A stretch of 64,000 nucleotides of DNA, taken from IMG/VR virus record IMGVR_UViG_3300045988_139610; one strand, 5' to 3'. This stretch comes from a virus. Shown here in pieces: positions 1,161 to 63,845 of the stretch. The position numbers and the translations under genes are program-made. The first letter of the stretch is position 1; every line of letters starts with the position of its first letter. The notes beneath the pieces are model-generated. The model did no database searches. It saw only the letters and a program-made list of their open reading frames with translations, and was not told the DNA's origin.

Positions 1161-1197
1161 AATATCTATCCTCCTAAATTTTATTAATTATTTTTAA

Positions 1198-2034
1198 TTA
1201 CATATTTATTGTTAAATCATTTTCTTCATATAAACCGTATTTAATTGCTAAATCTTTTATTACAATTAATATTGCCTCAATTAATAACTTGTCTTCGTTT
1301 ATTATGTCTAATTTATTTATTTTATCTGCTTTTGTTTTACTTACACCATTTTTAATAGCATTATTTTTTCTATTTTTTAATCTAGTATTTAAATTAACTC
1401 CAAATCTGTTATCTATTTCTTTATATATTTCATCATATACAACCTTATGATTTATACCAGTTTTATATGTTATCTTATTTACCATATTTTTCACATCTGC
1501 TCTCCAATTATCTTTCGATAATGATATTAAGTCTTGTATATTATCTAATGAATTTTGAAGTCCTTTTATATCTTTTTCCATTTGTTTCTGTTTTAATTCT
1601 TGTTCAACCATACTATCAAATAATATTTTGAATGACTGAAGATTAGGTGATAATTCTGTTGTGTCTATTGCTTGCATTTGTGCTAATTCCATTTCGTTGA
1701 AACGTTTAACATATTTTGCTGTAAATATTATACCTTTTTCACCTGTCATTTTGTTTGCTAACATTTCACAACCCATTTTAGTACATTCATAAAACGGTTT
1801 TTTTCTATTCATACTATCTTTGTAACTTGATTTTATAAAGTAATCAGATAGGTGTAATTCTGCACTTATCTCTATAGTCGGTTTTATACCAACTATCCCA
1901 CGTTTTTCATTTCCTTCTATCATCCACATTATTTCCTTATGTTCTTTTCCCATCATCTTAGCTACTTCATAACTAGGAATTGTTTCAACTTTCTTTCCTT
2001 TATTTATATCAATTATATTACTCATATTTCTCAC
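1198..2034 (-). CDS. Rha-family phage regulatory protein
   Basis: 278-aa ORF. SYEVAKMMGKEHKEIMWMI ... FTAKYVKRFNEME fits the Phage_pRha pattern. SD upstream. Confidence 0.6.
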   Translation of the reverse strand: MRNMSNIIDINKGKKVETIPSYEVAKMMGKEHKEIMWMIEGNEKRGIVGIKPTIEISAELHLSDYFIKSSYKDSMNRKKPFYECTKMGCEMLANKMTGEKGIIFTAKYVKRFNEMELAQMQAIDTTELSPNLQSFKILFDSMVEQELKQKQMEKDIKGLQNSLDNIQDLISLSKDNWRADVKNMVNKITYKTGINHKVVYDEIYKEIDNRFGVNLNTRLKNRKNNAIKNGVSKTKADKINKLDIINEDKLLIEAILIVIKDLAIKYGLYEENDLTINM

Positions 2035-2120
2035 TCTCCCTTATTAATTATTTTTAATCCTTTACTATTTTTGTCGAGGTATTTCAATAAATTTACATTT
2101 TAATCACCTTCTTATTATAG

Positions 2121-2151
2121 TATTATCAAAACTGTTATTGAAATTACCTAT
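2121..2151 (-). promoter_or_regulatory. Bipartite element ATAGGTA-N16-TGATAATA (copy A)
   Basis: Reverse complement of 2121-2151. Exact 16-nt spacing as in the 6 other copies. Followed by an SD plus ATGTAA start-stop (2093-2098), then the Rha gene. Confidence 0.55.
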
Positions 2152-2195
2152 AATTTAAAATTTATATTTCATATTATCTCCTCCTTATAGTAATA

Positions 2196-2223
2196 ATTAT
2201 ATCATACCTATATTATTTGTCAA
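2196..2223 (-). promoter_or_regulatory. SigA-type promoter TTGACA-N16-TATAAT
   Basis: Reverse complement reads TTGACAaataatataggtatgaTATAAT. The 16-mer lies 5 nt upstream of the -35 box. Confidence 0.6.
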
Positions 2224-2236
2224 TACATTTTATTAA

Positions 2237-2776
2237 TTATTTTTGCATTAAATCTAAAATAGTACATATATCAATATCGTTATTATTTTTTCGTAATTTA
2301 TCACAATCTGGCTTATAGCAACAATTGTTACAACTGTCTATTACAAAATCTTGATACAATATGTTCAATATTCTATCTGCTTTATTAGCACACTGTGCTT
2401 TCATTCTTTTCATCATATTTTCTTCATTAATGCTAATACTAATTTCATTCCAGCTAATTACATGACTTATTTGACAATAATTATTAAAATCTGTTCCCTT
2501 CCAATAAGGCTGTACTGAATGTTCTGTACCATCTATAAGTTCTAATTCAATTTTCACTATATCATCAGACATAGACAATCTATTAAAAGGACTCAAGTCA
2601 TTTGTAAATGAATGATATTCAATATTGTCCATCTTCTCAATAACACATTCAAAATTATAATATTCATTATCTACTTTTGATATATTCAATTTTGTAAAAT
2701 TTTCAATCGGTATTTCAACATACTCACAATTTTCACAAACGAATGTTACCGATTTTATTTCTTTTATATTATTCAT
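2237..2776 (-). CDS. Hypothetical Cys-rich protein
   Basis: 179-aa ORF with SD GGAGGAG and its own promoter. The stop codon lies inside the 16-mer. Confidence 0.5.
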   Translation of the reverse strand: MNNIKEIKSVTFVCENCEYVEIPIENFTKLNISKVDNEYYNFECVIEKMDNIEYHSFTNDLSPFNRLSMSDDIVKIELELIDGTEHSVQPYWKGTDFNNYCQISHVISWNEISISINEENMMKRMKAQCANKADRILNILYQDFVIDSCNNCCYKPDCDKLRKNNNDIDICTILDLMQK

Positions 2777-4719: not shown

Positions 4720-4954
4720 TACTTTTATTAATTATTTTTATTTTATCTACTAAACAACTCAATTCATCCCAATTATGTAAATAAAACACATAATCATTTA
4801 CATATACTTCAATTATTCCTTTTGAGAAAAAACTTCTCTCTCTAAAAATTATTCTTACTCTTAGTTGTTCATTTGCGAATATAGATATAAAATAGTTATC
4901 TTCAACTAATTTTAAATTTAGTTCTTTTTTCAGATATTCTATTTCTTTAATCAT
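4709..4954 (-). CDS. Hypothetical protein
   Basis: 81-aa ORF. The C-terminal KIKIINKSIDK is encoded by the 16-mer plus the next -35 box. Confidence 0.5.
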   Translation of the reverse strand: MIKEIEYLKKELNLKLVEDNYFISIFANEQLRVRIIFRERSFFSKGIIEVYVNDYVFYLHNWDELSCLVDKIKIINKSIDK

Positions 4955-5981: not shown

Positions 5982-6046
5982 ATTATATTCCTCCTTTATT
6001 AATTTATACTTATATATTAACATAAACTAATTAAAAATAACCCTTA

Positions 6047-6541
6047 TTAATTATTTTTATCATCTAACAAATTAACTTCTTCAATATCATAATACTCGCA
6101 ATCAGCACAACATGGAGATTCGCAACTTAATAAGCTATTCAATTCAGAAAGTTCAGATGGGTCTAAACTTTCTTTTCCATGAAGTTTACATTTATGAATT
6201 GTAAATTCAACTGAAGGTGTATTACTTTGTTGTAAAACACATATTCTTAAAAGAGTATAAACATCTATTATACCTTCATTACCTTCTGTAGTCATAGCTT
6301 GTATAATCTTATTTTTGTAATAATACGATATTGATATATTATAATTTCCATCTATTTTAGCTAATAATGTGAAATGTTTAGCATCTCCTATATTCGTATC
6401 TATATATTCGTATAAATCTTTAGATGTTAATTTTATTGTCACCTCCAATACATTAAGTCCTTTTAATTTTTCAACCTTTTCCTCTACCTCGCTTATTATT
6501 AATTCTTCCAATTTATTTGCGAATAACTCATTTTTGTTCAT
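6047..6541 (-). CDS. Hypothetical protein
   Basis: 164-aa ORF with SD GGGGGTAG. Ends ..KNN* within the 16-mer. Confidence 0.5.
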   Translation of the reverse strand: MNKNELFANKLEELIISEVEEKVEKLKGLNVLEVTIKLTSKDLYEYIDTNIGDAKHFTLLAKIDGNYNISISYYYKNKIIQAMTTEGNEGIIDVYTLLRICVLQQSNTPSVEFTIHKCKLHGKESLDPSELSELNSLLSCESPCCADCEYYDIEEVNLLDDKNN

Positions 6542-6595: not shown

Positions 6596-6690
6596 TACTT
6601 TTTATTAATTATTTTTATTAACTTTTCTTAATTTTTAACAATTAATTAGTGTGCTGTATGCACCTCCTCTATAGAAATGTATTTAATCCT

Positions 6691-9855: not shown

Positions 9856-9937
9856 AATATCTCCTCCTATTTTATTAATTATTTTTACTTAAACTTTCTA
9901 AATCTCCATAAAATTCCATCATATCATCCTCTCAAAC

Positions 9938-11630: not shown

Positions 11631-11657
11631 GTCTTACCACCCCTTTATTAATTATTT

Positions 11658-11843
11658 TCACATATCTGACTTTTCCATAAGTTGTTTAAAATCCTCAAAT
11701 TCATCGAGTATTTTATTTATATCTTTATTTAATTCACAATCATTACAGGAATGATTGCATATACTTTGACTATCACATATTGTTGCTATGACTAATTCTT
11801 TTATTTCTTCTAATTTATCTAACATTTCTTCTATATACATCAT
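11658..11843 (-). CDS. Hypothetical protein
   Basis: 61-aa acidic, Cys-containing ORF with SD AAGGAGAA. Confidence 0.45.
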   Translation of the reverse strand: MMYIEEMLDKLEEIKELVIATICDSQSICNHSCNDCELNKDINKILDEFEDFKQLMEKSDM

Positions 11844-11881
11844 ATTATTATTCTCCTTTTATTAATTATTTTTATCTATCG

Positions 11882-12859: not shown

Positions 12860-12875
12860 ATTTATTTCTCCTTTA

Positions 12876-13451
12876 TTAATTATTTTTAATTTCTTTTATT
12901 ATATCTTTAATTAAATTGATTTTTCTATTAATTGTCACACTACTTACATTTAATTTTTTAGATATATTTTTTTGCTTGTATCCATCCATTAACATATCCA
13001 TAATTATATGTAATTCTTCTGCATTAATCTTATTAAATTTATTAATATTTCTTTTTTTTATTATACTATCAAATTCATTCATTAATTCTATATATTCGAT
13101 ATTTTGATATTCTAAATCTATTTTTCCTATAGTATCTAATAGAGTAGTCTGTTCTTTATCATCGTCAGATATATTAACATCCATAGATATAAGCATATCT
13201 TTGTCTCTATAATAAGTGTTTCTTAAATAGACATTGTATGAATTGTATATAATTGCACAAATAAATTTTTTAATATCCCCTTTAGACTCATCAAATTTAT
13301 TTCTAGATTCCCAAAGTTGTAGTAACGAATATTGAATCATATCTTCTTTAATTTTGAAAAATCCATTATAATTTTTATTATATATCTTACCAGCTAATTC
13401 TAAAGATAAATTTACATATTCTGTATCACTTATCATTGTTTTACTCATCAC
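12876..13451 (-). CDS. Small sigma-70-family (ECF/TcdR-size) sigma factor-like protein
   Basis: Region-2-like EDMIQYSLLQLWESRNKFD..FICAIIYNSYNVYLR and region-4 HTH ISKKLNVSSVTINRKINLIKDIIKE. Paralogue of 13529-14119. Confidence 0.6.
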   Translation of the reverse strand: MMSKTMISDTEYVNLSLELAGKIYNKNYNGFFKIKEDMIQYSLLQLWESRNKFDESKGDIKKFICAIIYNSYNVYLRNTYYRDKDMLISMDVNISDDDKEQTTLLDTIGKIDLEYQNIEYIELMNEFDSIIKKRNINKFNKINAEELHIIMDMLMDGYKQKNISKKLNVSSVTINRKINLIKDIIKEIKNN

Positions 13452-13528
13452 TTTACCCCCTATAGTTTATTAATTATTTTTATCTATACATAGATTGTAT
13501 GATATTGTAATGATATTTGCCACCTCCT

Positions 13529-14119
13529 TTATTCATTATTTTTTATTTCTGTAATTATATCTTTTATTCTATTGACTTTCTTATTAACATTCGTACTGCT
13601 TACTCCTAACATTTTGCTGATTTCGCATTTATTATAGCCTTCATATAGTTTATTAATTATAAAATGTAACTCATCCAAATCTATTTTTCTACTTGTATGT
13701 TTATTTCTCTCTTCAACTATATTATTAAATTTATTTATAAACTCTTGTTTTTCAATATTTTTATAGTTGATATCTTCTTTAAGAAAATGACTAATTAATT
13801 TATTATATTCCTTTCTACAATCCAGTAATGTATCATTCATTGTATATATTCCTTCAGCAGAAATAACTTTACCTTTATTTTTATATACAAAGTCTCTCAC
13901 ATATTTTGTCATGCTCTTCCATGCAATAGCATTAAGATAAGTATTTAATGAAACATTTTTGCTTTCATCATATCTTTTTATGGCACTACACATTTGCATA
14001 TAAGCATATGATTGCATATCGTCTTTAAATAGAGAGAATGTTTTAAATCGTTTATTCCATATTCCCTTTGTTATTTTTATCATCAATCTTCCTTGTTCTT
14101 CTGAAATTTTTTCTTTCAT
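13529..14119 (-). CDS. Small sigma-70-family sigma factor-like protein (paralogue)
   Basis: DDMQSYAYMQMCSAIKRYD..YLNAIAWKSMTKYVRD and C-terminal HTH ISKMLGVSSTNVNKKVNRIKDIITE. Confidence 0.6.
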   Translation of the reverse strand: MKEKISEEQGRLMIKITKGIWNKRFKTFSLFKDDMQSYAYMQMCSAIKRYDESKNVSLNTYLNAIAWKSMTKYVRDFVYKNKGKVISAEGIYTMNDTLLDCRKEYNKLISHFLKEDINYKNIEKQEFINKFNNIVEERNKHTSRKIDLDELHFIINKLYEGYNKCEISKMLGVSSTNVNKKVNRIKDIITEIKNNE

Positions 14120-14209
14120 GTTTTCTTCCCCTTGTTTATCTTATACTATATATCATATGAACTTACTTGCCAAAAGTCAATACCTTTGACAAGATTTTAT
14201 TAATTATTT

Positions 14210-14821
14210 TTAATTATCTTCTTCCCTACACCATTTTCTAAATACAATATGATATTCATCTTCCCACAAATCTAAAACAAATCCTTTATTTACATCAGTT
14301 ACATCGACAAGACTTTCGTTACAACAATACATCCAATCTTTTATATCTTTTTTATCAACTAAATTTACGTCAAAATAATATTCCTTATTTTTATTAAATA
14401 TAAGCTCTTTTGAATGATTATTTATAGGTTTATCTTCTAAATTATCTAATAATGAAAATCCTGCATCTGTCCAATGGTCATTTTTATCTATACCAAAAAA
14501 TATTTTTCCTTCAAATTCTTTAGGTTTACTGCCTTTTAGACTTGATTTTGTTTGTATTGTTCCTATAACATCATTTATAATGTCATTCCCATATACATTT
14601 TCTGTTTCTGTGGATTTAACATCTACTTCTATTTTATTGCAACTATAAGGAAATACAACGTATTCCTCACCTTCTACTTTAACAATGCCTATATATTCAG
14701 TTTCTGGCTCTACAATTAATCCATCACATACACTTGTCCAAGTAAATTTCTCACCATTATAAAGATAATACTTATTTTCACTAAAGACATATAATGCTTT
14801 TAAATCAAATTTATCTAACAT
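14210..14821 (-). CDS. Hypothetical protein (paralogous ends with 16531-16875)
   Basis: 203-aa ORF. The C-terminal YHIVFRKWCREE resembles AYIVFVNWCKEV. Confidence 0.5.
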   Translation of the reverse strand: MLDKFDLKALYVFSENKYYLYNGEKFTWTSVCDGLIVEPETEYIGIVKVEGEEYVVFPYSCNKIEVDVKSTETENVYGNDIINDVIGTIQTKSSLKGSKPKEFEGKIFFGIDKNDHWTDAGFSLLDNLEDKPINNHSKELIFNKNKEYYFDVNLVDKKDIKDWMYCCNESLVDVTDVNKGFVLDLWEDEYHIVFRKWCREEDN

Positions 14822-15139: not shown

Positions 15140-15156
15140 ATTAAAACCTCCTTTTA

Positions 15157-15585
15157 TTAATTATTTTCTTCTACTTCTTTTGTTATACCTAAATAACTTC
15201 CTCCAATGCTTTCCACCCATGTTATAAATTCTTCAATAAATCTTTCTTCGTCCATTTCAGATATAACAATTCCGTTTATTTCCACGCTGTGAGGTTTTCT
15301 TTCTTTGACAAAATCTTTCCAATCAATAATAGGTAAATGACTATAATTTTTCTTATAAAAATTAACGGTTCCATAAACTAAAGTTTTATGTTCTTCTTTA
15401 TATTGATATCGTAAACAAGAGTTATATCCATATTCATTATACATTGTGTATAATAATGAAAATAGATTTTCTTCTTCTGGTAAACAAACTTTACTTTGTT
15501 CATAAAAATCTCTTACATCATTAATTTCTTCAAAATGGATTATTAATTCCCCATCTTTAAATTTTTTCCAATTTGCTTTGTTCAT
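15157..15585 (-). CDS. Hypothetical protein
   Basis: 142-aa ORF with SD GGGAGG. Ends ..ENN* in the 16-mer. Confidence 0.5.
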   Translation of the reverse strand: MNKANWKKFKDGELIIHFEEINDVRDFYEQSKVCLPEEENLFSLLYTMYNEYGYNSCLRYQYKEEHKTLVYGTVNFYKKNYSHLPIIDWKDFVKERKPHSVEINGIVISEMDEERFIEEFITWVESIGGSYLGITKEVEENN

Positions 15586-15638: not shown

Positions 15639-15650
15639 TAAGTTTATTAA

Positions 15651-16235
15651 TTATTTTAGCTTTAAATTATGTAATTTTTTAATTTTTTCTTTTTTCTCAC
15701 CATTGCTTTCAGTATAATACTTTTCATTATATCGTTTAATACTTGCCTCATCTTTTATAGGTTTTTCTTTTTGTATATAATTACTTAAAGCATCCAATAT
15801 CGTATTGTAAGCTTTATCAAATCCGTATAATTTACGATTTTCATTTTCTGTAATTCTACGCTTAGTTAATTGATTTTTCATATTATTTAAAAATTCTAAT
15901 TGTTTTGTTTCTTCTAATTCTCCTAAGTCTAATTCTTCAAGTTGATGATATAATTTATTTTTAACATTACCATAATTATGTTCTTCTCTTGTTACTTCTA
16001 CTTGGTATTTACCAAGCTCTATTAAGTCATCTATAAGATTATTATATAACTTTTCAAAAGACTTTTTACCTGTATGTTTTACGAATTGCACTTTATCATC
16101 TTTATAAACTGTTATTTCAGCAGGTATATTTGAATATTCTTGTTTAATTTCATTATATTTTTCCATACACTCTTTATAACTATCTGCTTTCAAAGAGAAA
16201 CTGCCATATTTTAATCCAATTTTTATTTTATACAT
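15651..16235 (-). CDS. Hypothetical protein
   Basis: 194-aa ORF, K/E-rich and probably helical. Confidence 0.5.
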   Translation of the reverse strand: MYKIKIGLKYGSFSLKADSYKECMEKYNEIKQEYSNIPAEITVYKDDKVQFVKHTGKKSFEKLYNNLIDDLIELGKYQVEVTREEHNYGNVKNKLYHQLEELDLGELEETKQLEFLNNMKNQLTKRRITENENRKLYGFDKAYNTILDALSNYIQKEKPIKDEASIKRYNEKYYTESNGEKKEKIKKLHNLKLK

Positions 16236-16272
16236 CTTCTTTCCCCCTTATACATTATTTTATTAATTATTT

Positions 16273-16491
16273 TTATACTTCTAAATCAAATCCCCTTAAA
16301 TGATTATAATAACTTTCTCTTTTATCTGCTCTGTCTAACACATCCACTCTACATTGAAGAAAATCTATAACCTTTTCTAAAAAATCATCATCAAAATCTT
16401 GATTAATTTCTTTACAATATATAGCGTCTTCTTCTACGCTATTTGCTACTATTTCGTACGCTTCTTTAACATTCATAGTACCTAATCTCAT
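16273..16491 (-). CDS. Hypothetical protein
   Basis: 72-aa ORF with SD GGGGAAA. Confidence 0.45.
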   Translation of the reverse strand: MRLGTMNVKEAYEIVANSVEEDAIYCKEINQDFDDDFLEKVIDFLQCRVDVLDRADKRESYYNHLRGFDLEV

Positions 16492-16875: not shown

Positions 16876-16967
16876 ATTTACCAACTCCTTTTTATTTATT
16901 ATTATGTATTAAGTATATCATAACCAAATTATCTTTGTCAATACTTTTTATTAATTATTTATAAAGT

Positions 16968-17744: not shown

Positions 17745-17765
17745 AATATATCATCCCCTTATTAA

Positions 17766-18077
17766 TTATTTATAAATTTTATAATATGTAAGAAGGTCGT
17801 ACATTCCCTTTGTTCCTCTTATAATAAACCACTTTTTAAATTGCTTCTTACTTATATGAGTATATATCTTTACACATTCTGAATCTGGTACATCCTCAAA
17901 TATAACATTATTGAATAAGAAGTTTTTAAATGTTTCATAATCTGATTGATTATAAAGTGTATCTATTATCTTGCAATTTCTTTGTTGTTGAATTTTTATA
18001 TTTCTAATTCTTTCTTTATTTTTTTCAATTATATTCCCACCTGCACAATTAATAGGTTCTATTATCATATTTATCAT
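17766..18077 (-). CDS. Hypothetical protein
   Basis: 103-aa ORF. Confidence 0.45.
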   Translation of the reverse strand: MINMIIEPINCAGGNIIEKNKERIRNIKIQQQRNCKIIDTLYNQSDYETFKNFLFNNVIFEDVPDSECVKIYTHISKKQFKKWFIIRGTKGMYDLLTYYKIYK

Positions 18078-18144
18078 TCATCCCCCTTGTTTTTATTTTA
18101 TATATATATTATATGATGTTTATTATAATTTATCAACTGTTTTA

Positions 18145-18234
18145 TTAATTATTTTTATAATTAATTATGAATAATAAAAAGCCCATTGCCCCACCAACTA
18201 AACTTATAAACATAAATGCTAATACATATTTCAT
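18145..18234 (-). CDS. 29-aa hydrophobic peptide
   Basis: MKYVLAFMFISLVGGAMGFLLFIINYKNN*. SD AGGGGTGA and its own TTGACA-N17-TATTAT promoter. Ends NN* in the 16-mer. Confidence 0.4.
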   Translation of the reverse strand: MKYVLAFMFISLVGGAMGFLLFIINYKNN

Positions 18235-18323: not shown

Positions 18324-18349
18324 TTATATTATTATTAATTATTTTTAGA

Positions 18350-19090: not shown

Positions 19091-19196
19091 ATTATCATTC
19101 TCCTTTTTATTTATTATTTTTATTGATATTTCATTAACTTTATTAATTATTTTTTATCAACACTCAATTTACATCAACTCCTTTCTTATATTACTA

Positions 19197-19239: not shown

Positions 19240-19264
19240 AGAAACCAGAGATTTTCTAGTTTCT
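19240..19264 (-). terminator. Intrinsic terminator
   Basis: AGAAAC.AGA..TCT.GTTTCT hairpin overlapping the stop of 19256-20128, followed by T7 on the minus strand. Confidence 0.55.
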
Positions 19265-20128: not shown

Positions 20129-20279
20129 TTTAACTCCTTCCTTAGTTGTCTTGCTTAGTATATCATAAAATATATTTTAAGACAACTAACTTTATTAATT
20201 TTCTTTATATATTATACACAGATTGGAGTTTAAATATACCAACTTTTATTAATTATTTTTTAAAATAAGCAAAAAAAAT

Positions 20280-20298
20280 AAGAGGTATAAAACCTCTT
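20280..20298 (-). terminator. Intrinsic terminator
   Basis: AAGAGGT-ataaa-ACCTCTT followed by T8 on the minus strand. Confidence 0.6.
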
Positions 20299-20309
20299 GA
20301 AAGCAATAG

Positions 20310-21110: not shown

Positions 21111-21128
21111 AATATCACCCCTTCTTTA

Positions 21129-21386
21129 TTAATTATTTTTATCTATATAATTGAATACTAGAAAATCATTATCCTTTTTATTATACAGTAATTGTAGATG
21201 ATGCCAGGTAAGTTGAGTGTTATAATATAAATCTTGAAAAGCCAATACTATCAATTCTTCATTATTTGGAATGTTCAGTATTTCAGAAAACTCTTCTAGA
21301 GTATAATTAACAATCAGAGTATCTTCCAATCTTTTTCTACTGTGTTCTATAAAGTCATTGACTTGTTTTTGTTTTAATATATACAT
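21129..21386 (-). CDS. Hypothetical protein
   Basis: 85-aa ORF with SD AGGAGGAG. Ends ..KNN* in the 16-mer. Confidence 0.5.
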   Translation of the reverse strand: MYILKQKQVNDFIEHSRKRLEDTLIVNYTLEEFSEILNIPNNEELIVLAFQDLYYNTQLTWHHLQLLYNKKDNDFLVFNYIDKNN

Positions 21387-21434: not shown

Positions 21435-21504
21435 TAAATTTATTAATTATTTTTATAGTCAATTTTGAATTATGAACTTGTGAATAATGAAAAAATTGTG
21501 ACGA

Positions 21505-41006: not shown

Positions 41007-41023
41007 TAAAAGGAGGTGATAAT

Positions 41024-43842: not shown

Positions 43843-43871
43843 AAAATAATTAATAAAAAGGAGGAAATGTT

Positions 43872-44648: not shown

Positions 44649-44667
44649 TAAAATAGGGGTGGATAAA

Positions 44668-45849
44668 ATGTCAAGAGTATATTTCAATAGATTTTTTAGT
44701 AAAATAGATAAAAAGGGTATATATGATTATGCAAAATTAGATACAAATATAAATGATTTAGAAGAGAGAATACAATATGTATATGATTTATTAAATGTAG
44801 TGAAAGATGAAAATGGAACAGAATTTAGTAACGATGAATTTTGGAATGAAATATTCGTTCAACGTATTAATAAAACAAGTTATATTGATTTAATGCCTAA
44901 TTCAGAAACAGAATTATATTCTGAATCAAATATAGCAAAGACTTTAGAGGCTATAGCAAATTATATAATGTGGTGTGACCCTAATAAAAAAAAGAAAGAA
45001 CATATTAAAATATATGACAATGAAAAGAAGTTTCAAGATGCTATATCTAAAGATAGAAAATATTTTGATACATATGGAGAATCGGTAGATGATGGTGTTA
45101 TTATATTAAGGAGAAAAGAAAATTACAAGAAAGCTAAAGATGAAAAAGTTACAGCTGAAGATTTAAAAAATTATCCAGAGTTAAGAGAATATAAAAAAGA
45201 AATAGATAGATTGAGTTCTTACATAAGAGAAGATAGATTGGATGAGTTTATGGAGTACATGCAAAACAAAGGACACACTAAGATTAAAACGGAAAGACAG
45301 GCTAAATCATTTTTAGTAAATCACATAGGAGAACTTAAAAAAGACATGTTACAAGCAAAAATAGAATTAGCAAGACCTATTGTTTGGAAAGCTCCATTAA
45401 AAGATGCAGGAGAGGCTGATTGGGATGAACTTGATGAATTGGATTCTACTCATATGAAAGCTTTATTACAATTATATAGAGAATTAGAAGTATATGATTT
45501 TCAAAGCGATTTAGGATGTATATTTAAAGATTTAGAAGATGTACTCAGTGAGGTTAAACTGACTGAAAAACAAGAAGAATTATTAAATTTATGGATGAAA
45601 GGTATGACGGTTAGTAAAATAGCTAAAGAGTTAAATAAAAGCGTAGGTACAGTAAGTAAATATTTAGACAGAATAGTTAATAAAATAGTTGAGGTATATG
45701 AAGAAAAATTGGAAAATTGGTATTATTTAAATATAAGAAAAGGAGAATATAAACGTTGTAATAAATGTGGTGAAATTAAATTAATTAATAAATTTTATAA
45801 AGAATCAAATGGTGGATATAAAACTAAGTGTAAAAAATGTATGAATTAA
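44668..45849 (+). CDS. Sigma-region-4-like HTH protein with C-terminal zinc ribbon (possible late transcription factor)
   Basis: LTEKQEELLNLWMKGMTVSKIAKELNKSVGTVSKYLDRIVNKI resembles sigma-70 region 4 / LuxR HTH. C-terminal CNKCGE...CKKC. Confidence 0.5.
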   Translation: MSRVYFNRFFSKIDKKGIYDYAKLDTNINDLEERIQYVYDLLNVVKDENGTEFSNDEFWNEIFVQRINKTSYIDLMPNSETELYSESNIAKTLEAIANYIMWCDPNKKKKEHIKIYDNEKKFQDAISKDRKYFDTYGESVDDGVIILRRKENYKKAKDEKVTAEDLKNYPELREYKKEIDRLSSYIREDRLDEFMEYMQNKGHTKIKTERQAKSFLVNHIGELKKDMLQAKIELARPIVWKAPLKDAGEADWDELDELDSTHMKALLQLYRELEVYDFQSDLGCIFKDLEDVLSEVKLTEKQEELLNLWMKGMTVSKIAKELNKSVGTVSKYLDRIVNKIVEVYEEKLENWYYLNIRKGEYKRCNKCGEIKLINKFYKESNGGYKTKCKKCMN

Positions 45850-45995: not shown

Positions 45996-46298
45996 ATGGA
46001 AATAAACGTAGTAAAAGAATTACAAGGAGCTTTAGAAGAAAGAGGCTTAAAAGTATCTCAAGCAGAGGCTAGAGAAATATTAAAAGGATTAGAAGATACT
46101 GTTTCTTCAATATATCAACAAATGGAAGTAGGAGACACAGTTAGTATGGGAATGTTCCTAGTTGATAAGAAGATACAAAAAGGTAGAGAGGGTGTATTAA
46201 AAACTAAAGAAGGACAAGCTACACCTTATAAAACAGATGATAAAGTTACTGTAAAAGTTAGACTTAAAAAATCTGTAAAAGAAAGAATAGAAGAATAA
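45996..46298 (+). CDS. HU/IHF-like DNA-binding protein
   Basis: 100 aa. The pattern ..LSQAEAREILKGLEDTV...GDTVSMGMF... fits an HU-fold dimerisation helix plus beta arms. Confidence 0.55.
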   Translation: MEINVVKELQGALEERGLKVSQAEAREILKGLEDTVSSIYQQMEVGDTVSMGMFLVDKKIQKGREGVLKTKEGQATPYKTDDKVTVKVRLKKSVKERIEE

Positions 46299-46318
46299 TT
46301 AATAAAGGGAGGATAAAT

Positions 46319-57718: not shown

Positions 57719-57752
57719 GAATAAAATAATTAATAAAATGGAGGTTAAAAGA

Positions 57753-58905: not shown

Positions 58906-59619
58906 ATGCCAAAGAAATTAACTTATGAGGAAGTTAAAGAATATATTGAATCGCAAGGTTATAAATTGATATCTAAAGAATACATAAAAAGCGATGTTAA
59001 ACTTGAAATGATATGTCCTAATGGTCATCAATGTTATATATCATGGGATAATTTTAAATACGGAAGAAGATGTAAAGTTTGTAATGATATAGAAAAATCC
59101 AAAAGAAATCGTAAAGATTATAATGAAGTTAAATCTTATATAGAATCTTTCGGTTATGAATTGATAAGTAAAGAATATTTTAATCAAGATGGTTTACTTA
59201 CTATTAAGTGTCCCGAAAATCACGTTTTTAAAATGACGTATAAAATGTTTAAGCGTGGTAGCAGATGCCCAATATGTAATAAGTCAAAGGGAGAAAAAAG
59301 GATAAGTGATTATTTGGATGAAAAACATATTAAATATGAATATAATAAAGGTTATTTTGATGATTTGATTGGGTATAGTGGAAGATTGTTAAGACCAGAC
59401 TTTATTTTACCAGACTGTAAAATTTGGATAGAATATGATGGAGAGTTTCATTATAATAAAATTTATGAGAATGATAGTTATGATATAATGAAAATACATG
59501 ATAAAATCAAAGATACATATGCAAAGGAACATGATTGGAAATTAATAAGAATCCCATATTGGGAATTTGATAATATAGAAACCATTTTAAACAAAGAATT
59601 AAAAATAATTAATAAATAG
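58906..59619 (+). CDS. Intron-encoded endonuclease: duplicated zinc-ribbon module plus Vsr/DUF559-like PD-(D/E)XK domain
   Basis: Two copies of ..EVK.YIES.GY.LISKEY..CP.H....(F)K.G.RC..CN. C-terminal RPDFILPDCKIWIEYDGEFH..HDKIKDTYAKEHDWKLIRIPYW. Confidence 0.6.
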   Translation: MPKKLTYEEVKEYIESQGYKLISKEYIKSDVKLEMICPNGHQCYISWDNFKYGRRCKVCNDIEKSKRNRKDYNEVKSYIESFGYELISKEYFNQDGLLTIKCPENHVFKMTYKMFKRGSRCPICNKSKGEKRISDYLDEKHIKYEYNKGYFDDLIGYSGRLLRPDFILPDCKIWIEYDGEFHYNKIYENDSYDIMKIHDKIKDTYAKEHDWKLIRIPYWEFDNIETILNKELKIINK

Positions 59620-61036: not shown

Positions 61037-62024
61037 TTACTTTGAAAAATATAGAAAAAGAAATCTAAAAGATTTTAATACAATAGAGGAAAAAGAAAGA
61101 AATGATATGATTAACGACTTTGAGTTTTACTTAACTAAAGAGGCTCGAAGTGCTTATGAAATCCAATATACGAGACCAGATGAATTAATAAATAAAGAAA
61201 CTAATCTTCATGAAAGAATGGTTATAAAAGATATTGCTGATAATGATAAATCAGCATTTGATGAAAAATATTTAGTTTGTAGATTAGGTTGCCCAGTAGA
61301 TGTTGGTAGTTATATATATTGGAATAAATCATATTATATATTAGAATTTGAAGAAGTAATAAGTACAATGACTCATAAAAAGTATACATTAAAACGATGT
61401 AATGAATGGTTCAATATTGGATATAAAGGTGAAATTTATAGAACACCAGTTAATATTACTAACTTAACAATGTATTCTAAAGGTATTCACGATTATAAAT
61501 ATATTTCTAACCTAGATGCAAAAAGAACAGTTTTAGTAGGTTCTAATCCGATAACTTCTAGTTTGAAGGTCGGTGCAAGACTTATGGGTAAAGATAAACA
61601 AGCCTATAAAATAACTCATAAAAATGATTTTGAGTATACTAGAAGAGAAGTCCCTGGTGATGGATTAATCAAATGGTTGTTACTTGAAACTACTCAATTA
61701 GTTGAAGACGATGACGATAATTTAGTTGCTTATAATCCTTTTTATGACTCGTCTGTTAAATCTGGAGAAATAGAAGGAAATGATAAAATACATATAGGTG
61801 AAGATTTAATTTATAAAATTCAATATGACGAAGAAGTAAATTTTGAATTAGATTTTGATTATGGTTTTTGTAAAATTACTAATGTGAATAACAAAGAATG
61901 TACTATATCTGTAGATTTAGATTTTGATATTATTGGAGAAGTTATTACTTTAATAGCAAAAAATAAGAATGGTGAAACTATAGATATTAAAAATATAACA
62001 ATAAGAGGATTGGGGGCATCTTAA
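61029..62024 (+). CDS. Hypothetical neck/tail-module protein
   Basis: 331 aa. Overlapping start suggests translational coupling. Confidence 0.4.
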   Translation: MSNYFEKYRKRNLKDFNTIEEKERNDMINDFEFYLTKEARSAYEIQYTRPDELINKETNLHERMVIKDIADNDKSAFDEKYLVCRLGCPVDVGSYIYWNKSYYILEFEEVISTMTHKKYTLKRCNEWFNIGYKGEIYRTPVNITNLTMYSKGIHDYKYISNLDAKRTVLVGSNPITSSLKVGARLMGKDKQAYKITHKNDFEYTRREVPGDGLIKWLLLETTQLVEDDDDNLVAYNPFYDSSVKSGEIEGNDKIHIGEDLIYKIQYDEEVNFELDFDYGFCKITNVNNKECTISVDLDFDIIGEVITLIAKNKNGETIDIKNITIRGLGAS

Positions 62025-62025
62025 A

Positions 62026-62553
62026 ATGGGCAAGTTAATAACATTTCCAGATAGATATATAAATAAAGTGGGAACTCTTTTAATGCTTGATGATACAATT
62101 AATAAAATGTTGTATTATACAAACACCACTGAAGATGATATTTTATCTCTACCTAAAGTAAAAGAGCCTATAAAAAACCTTAATGATAAAAAAATATTTA
62201 TAGACCGTAGAGTTAATAAACTCTTTGACGCTATATTTGAATCTGATTGTTATATATTTTTAAATATGTATAAAGATGAACCAGCTTCTTTAAATAATGG
62301 TAAAACCTCTTCATTTATAAGTTCTTTTAGATTAGATATAGGTGTAGTTTGTCACAATAGTTGTTCCAATACATTAAATGGTTCAAGAGATGTTATCATT
62401 TACAAAAGAATAAATGAAATTCTTAGAGAAGATGAAAGATTAGAAGCTATTGGAAAACCAATTATAGGAACTACATCACAAAATTATTCAATACCAATTG
62501 ATTATAACACTTATATAACAAGTGTTACAGTGAGATATTTCAATGAAATGTAA
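62026..62553 (+). CDS. Hypothetical neck/tail-module protein
   Basis: 175 aa. Confidence 0.4.
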   Translation: MGKLITFPDRYINKVGTLLMLDDTINKMLYYTNTTEDDILSLPKVKEPIKNLNDKKIFIDRRVNKLFDAIFESDCYIFLNMYKDEPASLNNGKTSSFISSFRLDIGVVCHNSCSNTLNGSRDVIIYKRINEILREDERLEAIGKPIIGTTSQNYSIPIDYNTYITSVTVRYFNEM

Positions 62554-63283
62554 ATTCACTAAAGAATTATTATCTGGTAAAGATATTGATTTAAAAGAAT
62601 TTAATTTGGGCATTATTAAACAACCCAAAGTTCAAACCTTTATAGAGGTGGTAGATAGTATAGAATTTATAAAACCTTTTTATATGGTTCGATATTGGAA
62701 TAATAATGGTGCTTTTGAAGAAGTGGAAATGCCTTTTAATATATATTATACTTTATCTCAAAAGAATAAATCTTTATTAGTAGATTTAATATTATATCTT
62801 ATGATTTTATATGATACGAAAGATATAAAATTAAAAAATTGTGGAGATAAAGGATATAGTATATTTATTAAATCTCAAGATAATATTGAATCTTTTATAG
62901 ACGATAGTAATTTTAATATATTGTCTAAAATTGTTTTAGAAATAATGTATTATGATGAACCTAAAAAAGAAATCAAGCAAAAGATTGAAGGTTCGGCTGA
63001 AGATATAGCATTATTTGAAAAGTATGAAAAAGAATACAAAGAAAAACAAATGAAAAAAAATGCTATATATTTTGAAGAAATAGTAAGACAAGTGATACAT
63101 ACAAGAAAAACTACGTATGAAGAAATAAAAAATTGGACTGCTTGGCAATTACAAGACACTTATAAATCAATGAAAGCAATGGAAGATTGCGAATTGGCTT
63201 GGAAACTTGCTATTGCAGGAGCATATAAAGGTAAAGAAATTCCTCCTTGGTATATGGGTACAAGACTAATGAGGGATGAATAA
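62543..63283 (+). CDS. Hypothetical neck/tail-module protein
   Basis: 246 aa. Confidence 0.4.
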   Translation: MKCKFTKELLSGKDIDLKEFNLGIIKQPKVQTFIEVVDSIEFIKPFYMVRYWNNNGAFEEVEMPFNIYYTLSQKNKSLLVDLILYLMILYDTKDIKLKNCGDKGYSIFIKSQDNIESFIDDSNFNILSKIVLEIMYYDEPKKEIKQKIEGSAEDIALFEKYEKEYKEKQMKKNAIYFEEIVRQVIHTRKTTYEEIKNWTAWQLQDTYKSMKAMEDCELAWKLAIAGAYKGKEIPPWYMGTRLMRDE

Positions 63284-63311
63284 ATAATTAATAAAACGGA
63301 GGTAATGTGAA

Positions 63312-63821
63312 ATGGCACAAGAAACTTTATTCGTAATAGAAGGTGCTATGCAAGGGAAACTTCATCCAAATGGTGAAACTGGAACAGAAAAAGACGTAGC
63401 ATTAGATTATGTAAATGCATTTAATTTAGGTCAATCAGAAGATACTTTAAATGCTAGAGCTGATGGTAAAAATAAAATAACATTAAAAGCAAATAAAGCT
63501 ATGACTTTCACAGCAGAAATGGAAGTTATGAATTTTGATATGTTCTTAGTTACTTTAGGAGCTACAAAAGATGCAGAAGGTAAAGTACATATAGGTGATT
63601 CTCCATCTACTACTTATACTTATACAGGAAAAATGAAATTAAAATTCCCAGATGGTACAAGAAAAATATTAAATGCAACAATAGCTAATTGTACTCCACA
63701 AATAACTGAAGACTTTGGTACAAGTTCATTAGATTTACAAACTTATTCTGTAACTTTTGATATAGGTACTGATACAAATGGAGATTTTATGACATTTGAA
63801 GAAGATAAAACAAGTGTGTAA
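63312..63821 (+). CDS. Putative major tail protein
   Basis: 169 aa with a strong SD, followed by a terminator-like hairpin. Its position after the neck genes supports the call. Confidence 0.45.
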   Translation: MAQETLFVIEGAMQGKLHPNGETGTEKDVALDYVNAFNLGQSEDTLNARADGKNKITLKANKAMTFTAEMEVMNFDMFLVTLGATKDAEGKVHIGDSPSTTYTYTGKMKLKFPDGTRKILNATIANCTPQITEDFGTSSLDLQTYSVTFDIGTDTNGDFMTFEEDKTSV

Positions 63822-63845
63822 AAATAATTAATAAATTTTAACTTA

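Follow-up and report, generated by a model that had tools for sequence, protein, structure and literature searches.

A co-oriented 17-mer at gene boundaries of a gut phage-plasmid, a candidate operator for an SroF/MrpR-like repressor

SroF/MrpR proteins are the integrase-fold master repressors of SPbeta and phi3T, and act at repeated asymmetric AT-rich boxes (PMC10516654; bioRxiv 10.1101/2025.11.27.690993). MrpR binds a repeated 15-bp element, SPBRE, at 10 sites in SPbeta, as seen by ChAP-seq (PMC10516654). SroF-phi3T occupies its 26-bp box, which is asymmetric, AT-rich and contains A-tracts, as a monomer; it reads 24 of the 26 bp through an interface of about 1700 A2 (bioRxiv 10.1101/2025.11.27.690993). 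A second precedent is provided by the stoperators of cluster A mycobacteriophages, many co-oriented asymmetric sites at promoters or in short promoter-less intergenic gaps (PMC9283540). Here, a monomeric repressor works at promoters and, in an orientation-dependent manner, at intergenic sites (PMC9283540).

We analysed a 64,000-nucleotide stretch of DNA (the window) from an uncultured human-gut phage-plasmid that carries a 17-mer at nearly all of its gene boundaries. On sequence and analogy, we lean slightly towards this 17-mer, TAAAAATAATTAATAAA, being the operator of the phage's own 290-aa SroF/MrpR(YopR)-type master repressor.

Number and orientation of the repeat

The 13-nt core of the repeat, AAATAATTAATAA, has 54 exact matches in the window. 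By chance, a mean of 0.26 is found (100 dinucleotide-preserving shuffles; largest count 3). By position-by-position counts, the repeat as a whole is 17 nt long and sharply bounded, with conservation ending at its edges. Allowing up to 3 mismatches gives 95 matches (24.8 expected), almost all of them sense. Of the 54 core copies, 53 are sense with respect to local genes. The left arm has 43, all minus-strand, from 1181 to 33826; a preliminary description gave their orientation correctly and their number as 42. Its 10 exact plus-strand, sense copies on the right arm were all recovered (between 40769 and 63834). Hence, the repeat is real, asymmetric and co-oriented with gene reading direction. 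The reported flip across the origin is right as a description, transcription and replication direction being inseparable in the window. The left-arm copies are listed below (SD, Shine-Dalgarno sequence).

1180..1196 (-), SD-adjacent
2040..2056 (-), SD-adjacent
2229..2245 (-), core, TTGACA from 6 nt on, then TATAAT
4724..4740 (-), promoter-adjacent; in-frame KIINK of ORF 4709-4954
6043..6059 (-), stop (..NN*) for ORF 6047-6541
6601..6617 (-), promoter-adjacent
9871..9887 (-), SD-adjacent
11644..11660 (-), SD-adjacent
11858..11874 (-), SD-adjacent; empty site of a cassette indel in relatives L117, L119 and L124
12098..12114 (-), promoter-adjacent
12872..12888 (-), SD-adjacent; stop for ORF 12876-13451
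13466..13482 (-), SD-adjacent
14196..14212 (-), promoter -35 16 nt downstream, within a separate palindrome
15153..15169 (-), SD-adjacent; stop for ORF 15157-15585
15643..15659 (-), promoter-adjacent
16259..16275 (-), SD-adjacent
16947..16963 (-), promoter-adjacent; 3' boundary of AP2-like cassette 16968-17744
17758..17774 (-), SD-adjacent; 5' boundary of the same cassette
18141..18157 (-), promoter-adjacent; stop for ORF 18145-18297
18331..18347 (-), then hairpin with T-run, then promoter
19139..19155 (-), directly 3' of the repressor-like gene
20245..20261 (-), between a terminator and the SroF/MrpR-like gene promoter
20358..20374 (-), in-frame KIINK close to the end of ORF 20310-21110
21125..21141 (-), SD-adjacent; stop for ORF 21129-21386
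21439..21455 (-), promoter-adjacent
24664..24680 (-), promoter-adjacent; stop for ORF 24668-25279
25297..25313 (-), SD-adjacent; 3' end of a 44-nt mini-cassette without a gene
25341..25357 (-), 5' end of that mini-cassette
25354..25370 (-), in tandem with the previous copy, 13-nt register
25937..25953 (-), promoter -35 16 nt downstream
26350..26366 (-), promoter-adjacent
27007..27023 (-), then hairpin
27635..27651 (-), then weak promoter-like sequence
28261..28277 (-), promoter-adjacent; its TAATAA also lies 17 nt past an upstream TTGACA
28305..28321 (-), 5' end of a second 44-nt mini-cassette
29238..29254 (-), SD-adjacent by eye, promoter-type in the context classification
29635..29651 (-), promoter -35 18 nt downstream
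29736..29752 (-), SD-adjacent
31786..31802 (-), promoter before, SD after (order motif-promoter-motif-SD)
31843..31859 (-), upstream of the promoter preceding the previous copy
32621..32637 (-), SD-adjacent
33605..33621 (-), flanked by promoter and SD
33813..33829 (-), promoter-adjacent; first copy of the left arm

The right-arm copies are as follows.

40766..40782 (+), SD-adjacent; first copy of the right arm
40994..41010 (+), SD-adjacent; stop for ORF 40794-41006; borders AP2-like gene 41024-41800 on its 5' side
41802..41818 (+), SD-adjacent; 3' boundary of the same gene
43144..43160 (+), then hairpin, then SD
43841..43857 (+), SD-adjacent; precedes the DNA methylase gene
44636..44652 (+), SD-adjacent; stop of the methylase ORF, immediately 5' of the phage sigma-factor gene
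57721..57737 (+), SD-adjacent; within the structural module
59600..59616 (+), KIINK reading, end of non-core ORF 58906-59619
63279..63295 (+), SD-adjacent
63819..63835 (+), then terminator-like hairpin with T-run (by eye); SD-type in the context classification

The one remaining exact copy is antisense and probably has no functional role. The preliminary description rightly called it the only one and placed it within a CDS, giving its position as 43016.

43005..43021 (-), sole antisense exact copy; core 43006-43018, inside CDS 41833-43032

Degenerate copies are almost wholly missing from the window, which is unusual for operators and counts against that reading. The near copies are these.

13528..13544 (-), 2 mismatches
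19106..19122 (-), TAAAAATAATAAATAAA, 1 mismatch
20191..20207 (-), TAAAGAAAATTAATAAA, just past the -10 of the repressor-gene promoter; kept in relatives
22984..23000 (-), 2 mismatches
24016..24032 (-), 1 mismatch
32115..32131 (-), 2 mismatches
33129..33145 (-), 2 mismatches
33666..33682 (-), 1 mismatch; upstream of a promoter at 33660
45776..45792 (+), 2 mismatches
46290..46306 (+), GAAGAATAATTAATAAA, end of ORF 45996-46298

Promoters, ribosome-binding sites and stop codons

In 24 of the 54 copies, an SD sequence follows 0-12 nt past the core, in gaps without a promoter. A further 18 adjoin a TTGACA-like -35 plus a -10 (strong sigma-A promoters), the -35 starting mostly 4-8 nt past the core and, in a few cases, 16-18 nt past it. 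The other 12 have different contexts. The preliminary description had these SD and -35 contexts right, apart from one copy whose position is 4725 rather than 4735. A 17-mer lies just upstream of 16 of the 32 promoter-like sites found on the sense strand of the left arm. Such a position would suit an UP-element, but only for the promoter-linked subset, 18 of the 54 copies. Those same copies argue against the 17-mer being a translation enhancer; they lie upstream of the -35 and so outside the transcript of the downstream gene.

The repeat also supplies the stop codon of the upstream ORF in 128 of 288 copies (window and relatives), at motif positions 1, 7 or 11. Nine proteins had been said to end ..NN* in this way, and all do except for ORF 46639-46920, which ends in the degenerate copy AACAATTAATAAA. 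Both reported KIINK readings (4709-4954 and 58906-59619) are correct.

Some regions are free of the motif: the actin-like partition ATPase gene (7981-8910), the complete tyrosine integrase gene (23044-23949) and a 7-kb central gap with Rep3 and an FtsK-like gene. These are genes that a plasmid prophage must express.

Conservation and indels in relatives

Gut-metagenome relatives (131-143 kb contigs) have 276 further sense copies in 225 kb of related loci, and no antisense copy in any. The core is intact at 84 of 107 aligned positions (79%), compared with the 17% expected from a flank identity of 85-89%. The alignments indicate that individual copies are under purifying selection. Outside the phage clade, the motif is present once in 84 IMG/VR loci and twice in 8; in the genome collection, each of 120 loci has exactly one copy. 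This restriction to one or two copies per locus elsewhere bears out the early view that conservation exceeds what AT-richness would give.

Between relatives, 14 of 30 clean indels run from motif to motif; the copy at 29238..29254 (-), for example, bounds a 956-bp cassette indel with respect to L120 and L126. Because indels often start and stop exactly at copies, the repeat is probably also a recombination joint. Identical, co-oriented and present by the dozen at the ends of genes, the 17-mers could serve as micro-homology joints, at which single-gene cassettes would be gained, lost and swapped among related phages. The comparative support for a cassette-shuffling linker is thus real. Set against this as the primary role is the strong purifying conservation of single copies, which suggests a direct function with shuffling as its by-product.

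A candidate repressor and its known counterparts

The candidate direct function is that of an operator, and the putative binder is encoded on the left arm.

19256..20128 (-), SroF/MrpR(YopR)-like integrase-fold gene, 290 aa; candidate motif binder, without catalytic Arg-I
20129..20300 (-), control region of this gene, conserved in L117-L126

In a phmmer search of the PDB, the top four matches of the protein were SroF-phi3T (9rd5) and MrpR/YopR (8a0a, 8bj6, 8bjv). Identity to SroF/MrpR is low (14-18%), and the E-values from the single sequence are borderline (0.004-0.05). With a family profile from which SPbeta sequences had been left out, 9rd5 was matched at E=1.2e-6, and the precomputed Pfam family MrpR_C_cat is found on 43 of 43 full-length database homologues. 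In the PDB, the seven structures that best match the AlphaFold model (pLDDT 90.4) are all SroF/MrpR/YopR (E 3e-9 to 3e-7, TM 0.53-0.59); Cre is next (E 7e-5, TM 0.38). In place of the box-I catalytic Arg the protein has G121, at a position variable across the family, and it has no recognisable HxxR motif. Taken together, profile and predicted fold, the latter that of a tyrosine recombinase, place it closer to SroF/MrpR than to any active recombinase.

The control region has the order terminator, 17-mer, promoter, near-copy, 11-nt inverted repeat, SD. Hence, the promoter, TTGGTA-N-TGTGTATAAT, is bracketed by one 17-mer copy and one near-copy, and the latter (20191..20207) is a possible autoregulatory site. 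No LexA box for a Sar-type antirepressor switch was found within the window, which weighs against the repressor reading.

Homology, analogy and co-occurrence suggest that the 290-aa protein binds the 17-mer. Relatives L117-L126 were retrieved using this protein as the query, so co-occurrence there is partly circular. At 60% identity of the repressor homologue the motif is the same; at 48% it is relaxed, and at 37% its 5' half differs (AATAAATATAAAATTAATAAAA). A high-copy motif was not seen at 35%, and phiCD211 (about 27-30%) lacks the motif. As L258 and phiCD211 have a homologue and no high-copy motif, the protein does not predict the repeat. Motif variation among clades appears to track overall divergence and does not specifically prove co-evolution.

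By analogy with phi3T SroF, each asymmetric AT-rich box would be clamped by a single repressor monomer. Beside a strong sigma-A promoter, where the box stops 3-5 bp short of the -35, a footprint of 24-26 bp would extend over the UP-element zone and into the -35, and so shut the promoter. In a gap without a promoter, between a stop codon and the next SD, the bound monomer may be a polar roadblock to read-through. Such a polar, stoperator-like roadblock would account for the shared orientation of all copies, along the direction of transcription. Jointly, the boxes could keep the accessory/early arm silent in the plasmid prophage and bar entry into the sigma-factor/late arm; plasmid-maintenance modules, without boxes, would remain on.

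Comparison with the known systems gives a mixed picture. The 17-mer begins with nine bases, TAAAAATAA, that also occur in the reverse complement of the phi3T box, a match that could be chance in AT-rich DNA. The conserved motif here is 17 bp, compared with an SroF footprint of 24-26 bp, and this counts against an operator. In SPBc2, SPBRE copies are co-oriented with their target genes, as the 17-mer is here. By our reading, about 10 SPBc2 promoters have the element in their spacer, between -35 and -10, whereas copies of the 17-mer precede the -35 or stand apart from any promoter. The 17-mer is also at least ten times denser than the SPBc2 element, and its use is about tenfold denser than in any studied relative. 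Its placement, at promoters or in promoter-less gaps before an SD, resembles that of stoperators (PMC9283540). The stoperator-like recognition site first proposed is also the reading favoured here, with repressor binding suggested by analogy. Cluster A stoperators are not the closest precedent; given the homology of the protein encoded at 19256-20128(-), the SroF/MrpR boxes are closer.

A strand-following repeat at the gene boundaries of a phage-plasmid

The right arm, with plus-strand genes, encodes a phage sigma factor, an exonuclease, a split terminase, a portal and structural proteins. Its proteins are 30-48% identical to their counterparts in phiCD211, a 131-kb C. difficile phage, and match SPbeta Yon/Yom Pfam families. 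In the centre are genes for a Rep3 initiator and an FtsK-like ATPase (FtsK/SpoIIIE-like, 36732-37850). The left arm, with minus-strand genes, is a long series of small accessory genes together with an actin-like partition ATPase and a complete tyrosine integrase. By this gene content, the element is a phage-plasmid of the SPbeta/phiCD211 supergroup. Identical proteins were found on human-gut metagenome contigs. A nucleotide similarity search against known phages and plasmids returned almost nothing. The following features of the element are recorded for completeness.

33830-36020: gene-poor stretch of 2.2 kb between the left arm and the central genes, with no ORF above 50 aa; it holds several imperfect direct repeats (e.g. 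TGTAATCGTTGATATTACTAGCTT, three copies), long AT-rich inverted repeats and a switch in GC-skew sign, and may be where the Rep3 initiator has its origin or iterons
49307-52348: split large-terminase gene, in which a LAGLIDADG-type endonuclease ORF (49907-50749) lies between an N-terminal part (49307-49822, Terminase_6N) and a C-terminal part (51221-52348); probably an intron or intein-like insertion, with no Rfam intron model matching at the split
54922-55914: 330-aa HNH/homing-endonuclease gene amid conserved portal-proximal structural genes, absent from phiCD211
6933-7520 and 12128-12859, both minus strand: two pentapeptide-repeat proteins in the accessory arm (domains DUF7666 and DUF5758), which may be DNA-mimic or anti-defence proteins

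The preliminary description had reported a co-oriented repeat at almost every gene boundary of both arms. The repeat is real. The 64-kb window has 54 copies of its 13-nt core, AAATAATTAATAA, against a mean of 0.26 and a maximum of 3 in dinucleotide-preserving shuffles, and re-checking the details singly revealed small slips only. Thus, the left-arm array stands, with 43 copies rather than 42; a promoter-linked copy listed at 4735 exists but lies at 4725; and the ORFs said to end in ..NN* do so, save one whose end is a degenerate copy. The 43 minus-strand core copies span 1181-33826, where genes are on the minus strand throughout. The 10 plus-strand copies span 40769-63834 and lie among plus-strand genes. 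There is one exception to this rule.

43006-43018: sole antisense core copy, within a CDS

Alignment of all copies defines the full repeat as a sharp-edged 17-mer, TAAAAATAATTAATAAA, with no conservation beyond its edges. The 17-mer is pure A/T and contains no inverted repeat or stem-loop. When up to three mismatches were allowed, 95 matches were found, against 24.8 expected, and nearly all were sense. Degenerate copies are rare in the window.

Elements at the gene boundaries follow a set order. The stop codon of the upstream ORF is followed by the motif, an optional terminator hairpin, an optional sigma-A promoter, the Shine-Dalgarno sequence (SD) and the start codon. By automatic assignment, with three copies re-read by eye, 24 of the 54 window copies have an SD within 12 nt and no promoter, 18 precede a TTGACA-like -35 element with a matching -10, and the remaining 12 are associated with a hairpin, a farther promoter, in-frame reading or gene-less 44-nt 'mini-cassettes'. 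When the window was pooled with ten related loci, 92 of 288 copies were of the promoter class and 105 abutted an SD without room for a promoter. The distance from the core to the start of the -35 element was 4-8 nt in 90 of the 92 promoter-class copies, with a mode of 5 nt, and the promoter-linked 17-mer covers roughly -41 to -57. The motif carries UAA in two frames and provides the stop codon of the upstream ORF in 128 of 288 copies, from motif positions 1, 7 or 11. It lies 0-6 nt ahead of the SD in about 40% of copies; in about half, a promoter or terminator intervenes before the next gene. Some copies are downstream of a promoter or upstream of a terminator. Half of the sense-strand promoter-like sites of the left arm (16 of 32) have the motif just upstream, including nearly all of those with perfect TTGACA and TATAAT hexamers. 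In the right arm, a promoter is absent from all but one or two copies.

The variable, accessory arm is dense in motif copies (43 in 34 kb, roughly 1 per 0.8 kb). The motif is rare in the conserved structural/late operon, with almost no copies in the 13 kb that separate the sigma gene from the structural genes. The principal gaps in the array, and the copies that lead into the late genes, are as follows.

6615-9871: motif-free; holds the actin-like partition ATPase and its small partner
21453-24664: motif-free; holds the complete tyrosine integrase
7-kb centre: motif-free; holds Rep3 and the FtsK-like gene
44636-44652, plus strand, and five more within 40766-43857: copies directly before the sigma-factor gene and the genes that lead to it

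The long motif-free stretches coincide with genes that a plasmid prophage must keep on. A block at the 40766-44652 copies would prevent late expression.

Might the 17-mer be part of the promoter itself? The promoter-linked copies occupy the UP zone at a near-constant distance from -35, they accompany nearly all perfect-hexamer promoters of the left arm, and their composition presumably resembles the A/T-rich UP consensus. The 17-mer could then be the alpha-CTD-contacting upstream part of a standardised strong early promoter, with promoter-less copies as remnants. We consider this distinctly unlikely. The 24 window copies and 105 copies overall that run straight into an SD, including nearly all those in the right arm, are at odds with it, as are copies downstream of a promoter or upstream of a terminator. 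Furthermore, UP elements tolerate degeneracy, whereas the motif is exact over 13-17 nt, and promoter-less copies are conserved equally (see below). Promoters for the phage sigma factor were also considered and rejected. The SD-adjacent motif ends 0-6 nt before the SD, which leaves no room for a transcription start, and the scarcity of the motif in the late structural operon also opposes this reading.

The motif could instead act in mRNA. It might be a two-frame stop and a ribosome-release/re-initiation spacer ahead of the next SD, or else a site for processing or for a translational repressor. Strict sense orientation, UAA in two frames, the many upstream ORFs that end in the motif and its closeness to the SD would all be accommodated. 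However, a promoter-linked motif is upstream of -35 and so is missing from the transcript of the gene that it precedes; the same fact led us to reject a translation enhancer as a general explanation. Neither a stop nor a spacer needs exact conservation of 17 nt, and phiCD211, with the same gene architecture, works without the motif. No Rfam family or conserved structure was found for the motif. Similarly, a search for a structured RNA, tRNA or guide RNA complementary to it gave neither an Rfam match nor a tRNA, and the non-coding centre has no good antisense copy. A role in RNA is thus very improbable.

The orientation switch falls at the central region carrying the Rep3 initiator and the FtsK-like gene, where GC skew also changes sign. 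A polar KOPS/SRS-like motif for replication or translocation, pointing away from the Rep3 origin and read by the FtsK/SpoIIIE-like ATPase (36732-37850), would flip exactly there. However, transcription and replication directions coincide in this element, so transcription explains the flip equally well. KOPS-type motifs are short, G-rich and scattered regardless of gene boundaries. The 17-mer is tied to stop codons, -35 boxes and SDs, and is nearly missing between the sigma gene and the structural genes. We find a KOPS-like function scarcely credible.

Further sequence arrangements accompany the repeat. Within 25250-33000, a second repeat family stands ahead of the 17-mer; it consists of a short hairpin and then CCAGCTCTT(G/A)A, often ATGATAGTAA.

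25298-25367, 25900-25950, 28262-28321, 29200-29251, 32590-32634: examples of the second repeat family

The gene-less 44-nt units have the form motif-ATTTTTTAAAAGCTCTTGRCAATGATAGTAA-motif. In these units a 17-nt spacing separates TTGACA from the TAATAA belonging to the following motif copy; therefore, the motif may double as a -10 element there. Lastly, the promoter after the copy at 14196-14212 (14150-14200, minus strand) is embedded in a separate palindrome, CTTGTCAAAGGTATTGACTTTTGGCAAG, which is kept in all ten related loci and looks like an operator of another, dimeric regulator.

Conservation of the repeat and a candidate repressor

The ten related loci (L117-L126, 11-21 kb) derive from gut-metagenome contigs and were fetched with a 290-aa protein of the left arm as query (ORF 19256-20128, minus strand). 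They contain 235 copies of the motif, all sense. A sister clade, with a repressor homologue 60% identical to the query, contributes 41 further copies, again all sense. The relatives' total is 276 sense and 0 antisense copies in 225 kb. At positions aligned on both sides with relatives, the core is intact in 84 of 107 cases (79%), against 17% predicted from the 85-89% identity of the flanks. Copies without a promoter are conserved as well as the others. Such retention argues that each copy is either under direct purifying selection or continually homogenised.

The repeat appears confined to this lineage. When IMG/VR was scanned with the 17-mer, the many-hit set comprised contigs of 133-140 kb, and other contigs had one copy, rarely two. 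A scan of a genome collection for the motif with an SD gave at least 120 loci, unrelated and each single-copy. A literature search with the motif string found no relevant paper, and a paper on big C. difficile phages does not mention such a repeat. In phiCD211, which has the same two-arm architecture, there are 0 core copies and no equivalent repeat; no 13-mer occurs more than 5 times. The motif is therefore a lineage-specific addition and is not required by this genome type.

The 290-aa protein is 92-97% identical across the ten IMG/VR relatives, where neighbouring genes are mosaic, and is the only recombinase-fold protein conserved across the clade. A search of the representative-genome collection found no relative. 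In the PDB, the sequences closest to it are SroF of phi3T (9rd5) and MrpR/YopR of SPbeta (8a0a, 8bj6, 8bjv), although identity is only 14-18%. A profile built from 13 family members, without SPbeta sequences, matched 9rd5 in the PDB with E=1.2e-6; an archaeal Xer recombinase scored 0.017. The precomputed Pfam family MrpR_C_cat is assigned to 43 of 43 full-length database homologues. We also compared an AlphaFold model (mean pLDDT 90.4) with the PDB using Foldseek. The top seven structures were all SroF/MrpR/YopR (E 3e-9 to 3e-7, TM 0.53-0.59), and Cre, an integron integrase, Xer and lambda Int ranked behind (E >= 7e-5, TM about 0.38). On alignment with Xer box I (GLRVSEL), the catalytic Arg-I is replaced by G121, at a position that varies across the family. 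The HxxR motif is not recognisable, and the region reads SGIMYDM. Given these matches and the missing catalytic residues, we place the protein in the integrase-fold repressor family (tyrosine-recombinase CB + CAT fold) and not among the active recombinases. Active site-specific recombination by this protein is disfavoured by the loss of Arg-I.

The promoter of the repressor-like gene is flanked by a motif copy upstream and a near-copy just past -10, an arrangement kept in all relatives. The leader (20129-20200, minus strand) also has an 11-nt perfect inverted repeat, TTAGTTGTCTT ... AAGACAACTAA, with 27 nt between the arms, around a second promoter-like sequence. This could be an RNA hairpin or a second operator.

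SroF was crystallised on a 26-bp box, CAGTAATTTTATTTTTATTCTTAATG, as a monomer that clamps around the DNA (bioRxiv 10.1101/2025.11.27.690993). It reads 24 of the 26 bp, including two A-tracts, through an interface of about 1700 A2, and has multiple genomic sites (same preprint). For a protein of this type one would expect an AT-rich site that is long, asymmetric and almost without variation. The first nine bases of the motif, TAAAAATAA, occur in the phi3T box when this is read as its reverse complement. Given that the DNA is AT-rich, this resemblance is suggestive only.

The motif changes as the repressor diverges, in a series built from contigs encoding ever more distant homologues of the 290-aa protein. 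With the 60% identical homologue the motif is unchanged (23 copies in 21 kb). At 48% identity the core AATAATTAATAA is kept, in 13 copies over 13.5 kb, and the 5' part is relaxed. At 37% identity (L257, a 69.6-kb contig from Logan ERR14656847) a different motif, AATAAATATAAAATTAATAAAA, is present in about 12 strong copies in 21 kb; all are sense and occupy the same positions relative to promoters and SDs as the 17-mer. This variant has ATAAAATTA in common with the phi3T box, again no more than suggestive in AT-rich DNA. No high-copy motif was found at 35% identity, nor in phiCD211, where the homologue is about 27-30% identical. The L257 repeat suggests that the gene-boundary architecture is older than the particular 17-mer. 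The series is consistent with a co-evolving repressor/operator pair, although general divergence would give the same pattern.

On balance, we think that the 17-mer is the operator of this SroF/MrpR-like repressor, used beside promoters and, in promoter-less gaps, as a stoperator-like polar roadblock. From these data we infer binding, repression and the polarity of motif action.

Exchange of gene cassettes at the repeat

Relatives of the element differ by mosaic gain and loss of genes, and the changes cluster at the motif. Of the BLAST segment ends in comparisons with relatives, 28% lie in the motif itself and 45% lie no more than 10 nt from it; for random positions the figure is 2-5%. There are about 8 segment ends per gene boundary with a motif and 2.5 per boundary without. 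Clean indels between relatives number 30; 14 of them show the motif at the empty site as well as on each end of the insert, and in these motif-to-motif events homology ends exactly at the motif edge. The gene-less 44-nt mini-cassettes and one tandem pair of copies are also present. Together, segment ends and indels indicate that the repeat is a frequent recombination joint.

Recombination might then be the primary function. The 17-mer would be mainly a shared joint for exchange, deletion and duplication of single-gene cassettes, by relaxed homologous recombination or an unknown site-specific system, and regulation would be secondary. Density in the variable arm, scarcity in the structural operon, absence from phiCD211 and the motif-bounded copies of an AP2-like gene (see below) could be understood in the same way. 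Nevertheless, we consider a primary linker unlikely. Selection for evolvability cannot preserve each copy, yet the core is retained far above expectation and degenerate copies are rare. A linker needs no fixed spacing of 4-8 nt to -35, 17 bp is short for homologous recombination, and the one recombinase-fold protein conserved throughout the clade lacks Arg-I. Furthermore, of the 30 indels, 16 lack the motif at one or more junctions, and in 6 it is missing from every junction. Most gene boundaries bear the motif, so an indel of a whole gene that selection had kept would in any case end there. Since the copies are so strongly conserved, we read the joint as a consequence of a direct function and not as the reason for the motif.

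One of the cassettes encodes a 258-aa AP2-like protein. This motif-bounded gene has 29 copies in 12 sequences: two in the window, one per arm (16968-17744, minus strand; 41024-41800, plus strand), and 27 in L117-L126. Family members are 257-260 aa long, paralogues are 60-71% identical, and there are 2-5 copies per 20 kb. Their matches to phage 'HNH endonuclease' PHROG families are confined to the non-catalytic part. The NCBI name is 'AP2 domain-containing protein', and there are >4000 database relatives, many on contigs of 131-143 kb. We found no Pfam family, PDB sequence match or detectable nuclease domain for the family, and tblastn detected no member in phiCD211. There was no consistent sign of a target-site duplication beyond the motif at AP2-like insertions. 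The family looks like a domesticated or decaying DNA-binding module of a homing endonuclease. A second gene family, PHROG 2467 (Pfam YonV_C on a near-identical contig), also has one member per arm.

21697-22872, minus strand: left-arm PHROG 2467 member
41833-43032, plus strand: right-arm PHROG 2467 member, adjoining the AP2-like paralogue

This suggests that a two-gene block has been duplicated across the arms.

The motif could be a site for another phage DNA-binding protein, and the AP2-domain family is the main candidate. A conserved sequence in many copies would be ideally suited to homing, and cleavage at such sites would account for mosaicism with motif borders; the copy number of the family, its motif borders, its kinship with homing endonucleases and its absence from phiCD211 fit such a role. 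The tie to the motif is, however, co-occurrence alone. With no recognisable nuclease domain, and with paralogues so divergent that they are a poor fit to all reading one invariant 17-mer, this explanation is highly unlikely. Moreover, a homing target needs neither co-orientation with transcription nor a set distance to -35.

Each of the five rivals explains less of the data than the operator reading. A broader proposal, less probable than the operator reading itself, joins operator repeat and gene flux in one system. An accessory gene would travel as a spacer/promoter-SD-ORF-17-mer cassette, with the 17-mer serving as both crossover point and repressor roadblock. Any acquired gene would automatically gain an in-frame stop and a ribosome site and come under the resident repressor, in an integron-like 'plug-and-silence' phage-plasmid. 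In the strongest form of this proposal, the catalytically dead integrase-fold repressor would pair motif copies and so promote exchanges.

Relation to known repressor-operator systems

If the 17-mer is indeed the operator, SPbeta-type integrase-fold repressors are not limited to a handful of Bacillus-phage promoters. One of them would act throughout the genome, at almost every gene end, in an abundant clade of clostridial phage-plasmids from the human gut. This would be a second, independent invention of the mycobacteriophage 'stoperator' strategy on an unrelated protein fold. It would also be a concrete, testable case of a regulatory repeat that shapes phage mosaicism, since gene gain and loss often start and end exactly at the repeat. 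In practice, the 17-mer is a clean marker to find and bin the clade in metagenomes, and an exact repressor/operator pair for low-GC Clostridia could be a genetic tool.

The closest relatives of the system are in SPbeta-type phages. MrpR is the master repressor of SPbeta, and its ten ChAP-seq peaks are all at a predicted 15-bp 'SPbeta repeated element' (SPBRE; PMC10516654). We located ten SPBRE sites in SPBc2. Each falls within a promoter, between -35 and -10, and points the same way as its gene; this holds for the one minus-strand target too. The present system shares with SroF/MrpR a phage-encoded tyrosine-recombinase fold with the catalytic residues missing. Like the SPBRE and the 26-bp box, the motif is asymmetric, AT-rich and A-tract-containing, dispersed between genes and co-oriented with target genes, and a conserved core of 15-17 bp is common to SPBRE and motif. 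The SPbeta background is also evident in the Yon/Yom structural proteins, YopX and, in several relatives, an integrase gene beside the repressor gene. The differences are equally clear. SPbeta has about 10 sites in 134 kb, whereas here there are 54 in 64 kb. The SPBc2 element sits between -35 and -10; the motif is upstream of -35 or in a promoter-less gap before an SD, and often makes the upstream stop codon. Unlike the SPbeta system, this window, 64 kb of a genome of ~135 kb, shows no arbitrium genes (no AimR-like match among the window proteins scanned) and no LexA-controlled antirepressor (no LexA box GAAC-N4-GTTC for a Sar-type antirepressor switch). The host is probably a low-GC gut Clostridia member in place of Bacillus, and some members of the clade carry the label 'Clostridia bacterium'. 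Finally, the element is a plasmid prophage with Rep3 and an actin-like partition system, in contrast to SPbeta and phi3T.

In cluster A mycobacteriophages, a monomeric repressor binds asymmetric stoperators through an interface of about 1636 A2 and silences in an orientation-dependent manner (PMC9283540). Stoperator orientation correlates strikingly with transcription direction, and the sites lie in promoters and short intergenic gaps (PMC9283540). The same asymmetry, transcription-following orientation and placement at promoters and short gaps were seen for the motif. Many sites and a two-arm phage layout are further points in common with cluster A phages (L5 gp71, TipsytheTRex repressor). 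However, the stoperator repressor combines an HTH with a 'stoperator domain', whereas the candidate here has an integrase fold; so we claim an analogy with stoperators and not membership. Stoperators are 13 bp and G/C-rich, and number >20 per ~50 kb in phages of actinobacteria; the motif is 17 bp, pure A/T and, in the left arm, far denser. A roadblock has been demonstrated for stoperators, whereas here we infer it. The stoperator precedent nevertheless shows that such a mechanism can exist, though on an unrelated fold.

Two other repeat classes invite comparison. T4-type phages carry mobile regulatory cassettes, the degenerate 50-70 bp PeSLs (promoter-early stem-loop) reported by Arbiol and co-workers in 2010. 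These are the nearest published parallel for motif-bounded mosaicism. In both cases a hyperplastic region has small accessory ORFs bordered by the repeats, recombination junctions fall at these repeats, and regulation is thereby coupled to shuffling. A PeSL has promoter and stem-loop within the unit; here the unit is an exact 17-mer, has no stem-loop and leaves the promoter outside. Cluster K mycobacteriophages are reported, by Pope and co-workers in 2011, to have start-associated sequences (SAS/ESAS). Like the motif, the SAS is a conserved ~13-bp co-oriented sequence directly upstream of many start codons. The SAS, however, contains the ribosome-binding site and is always by the start codon, whereas the motif leaves the SD out.

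What is already known, then, is the repressor family and its repeated asymmetric box. What is new is that the sites are at least ten times denser than in SPbeta, that they stand at almost every gene end, the stop codon included, that hundreds of copies are strictly co-oriented, and that the repeat is coupled to cassette exchange.
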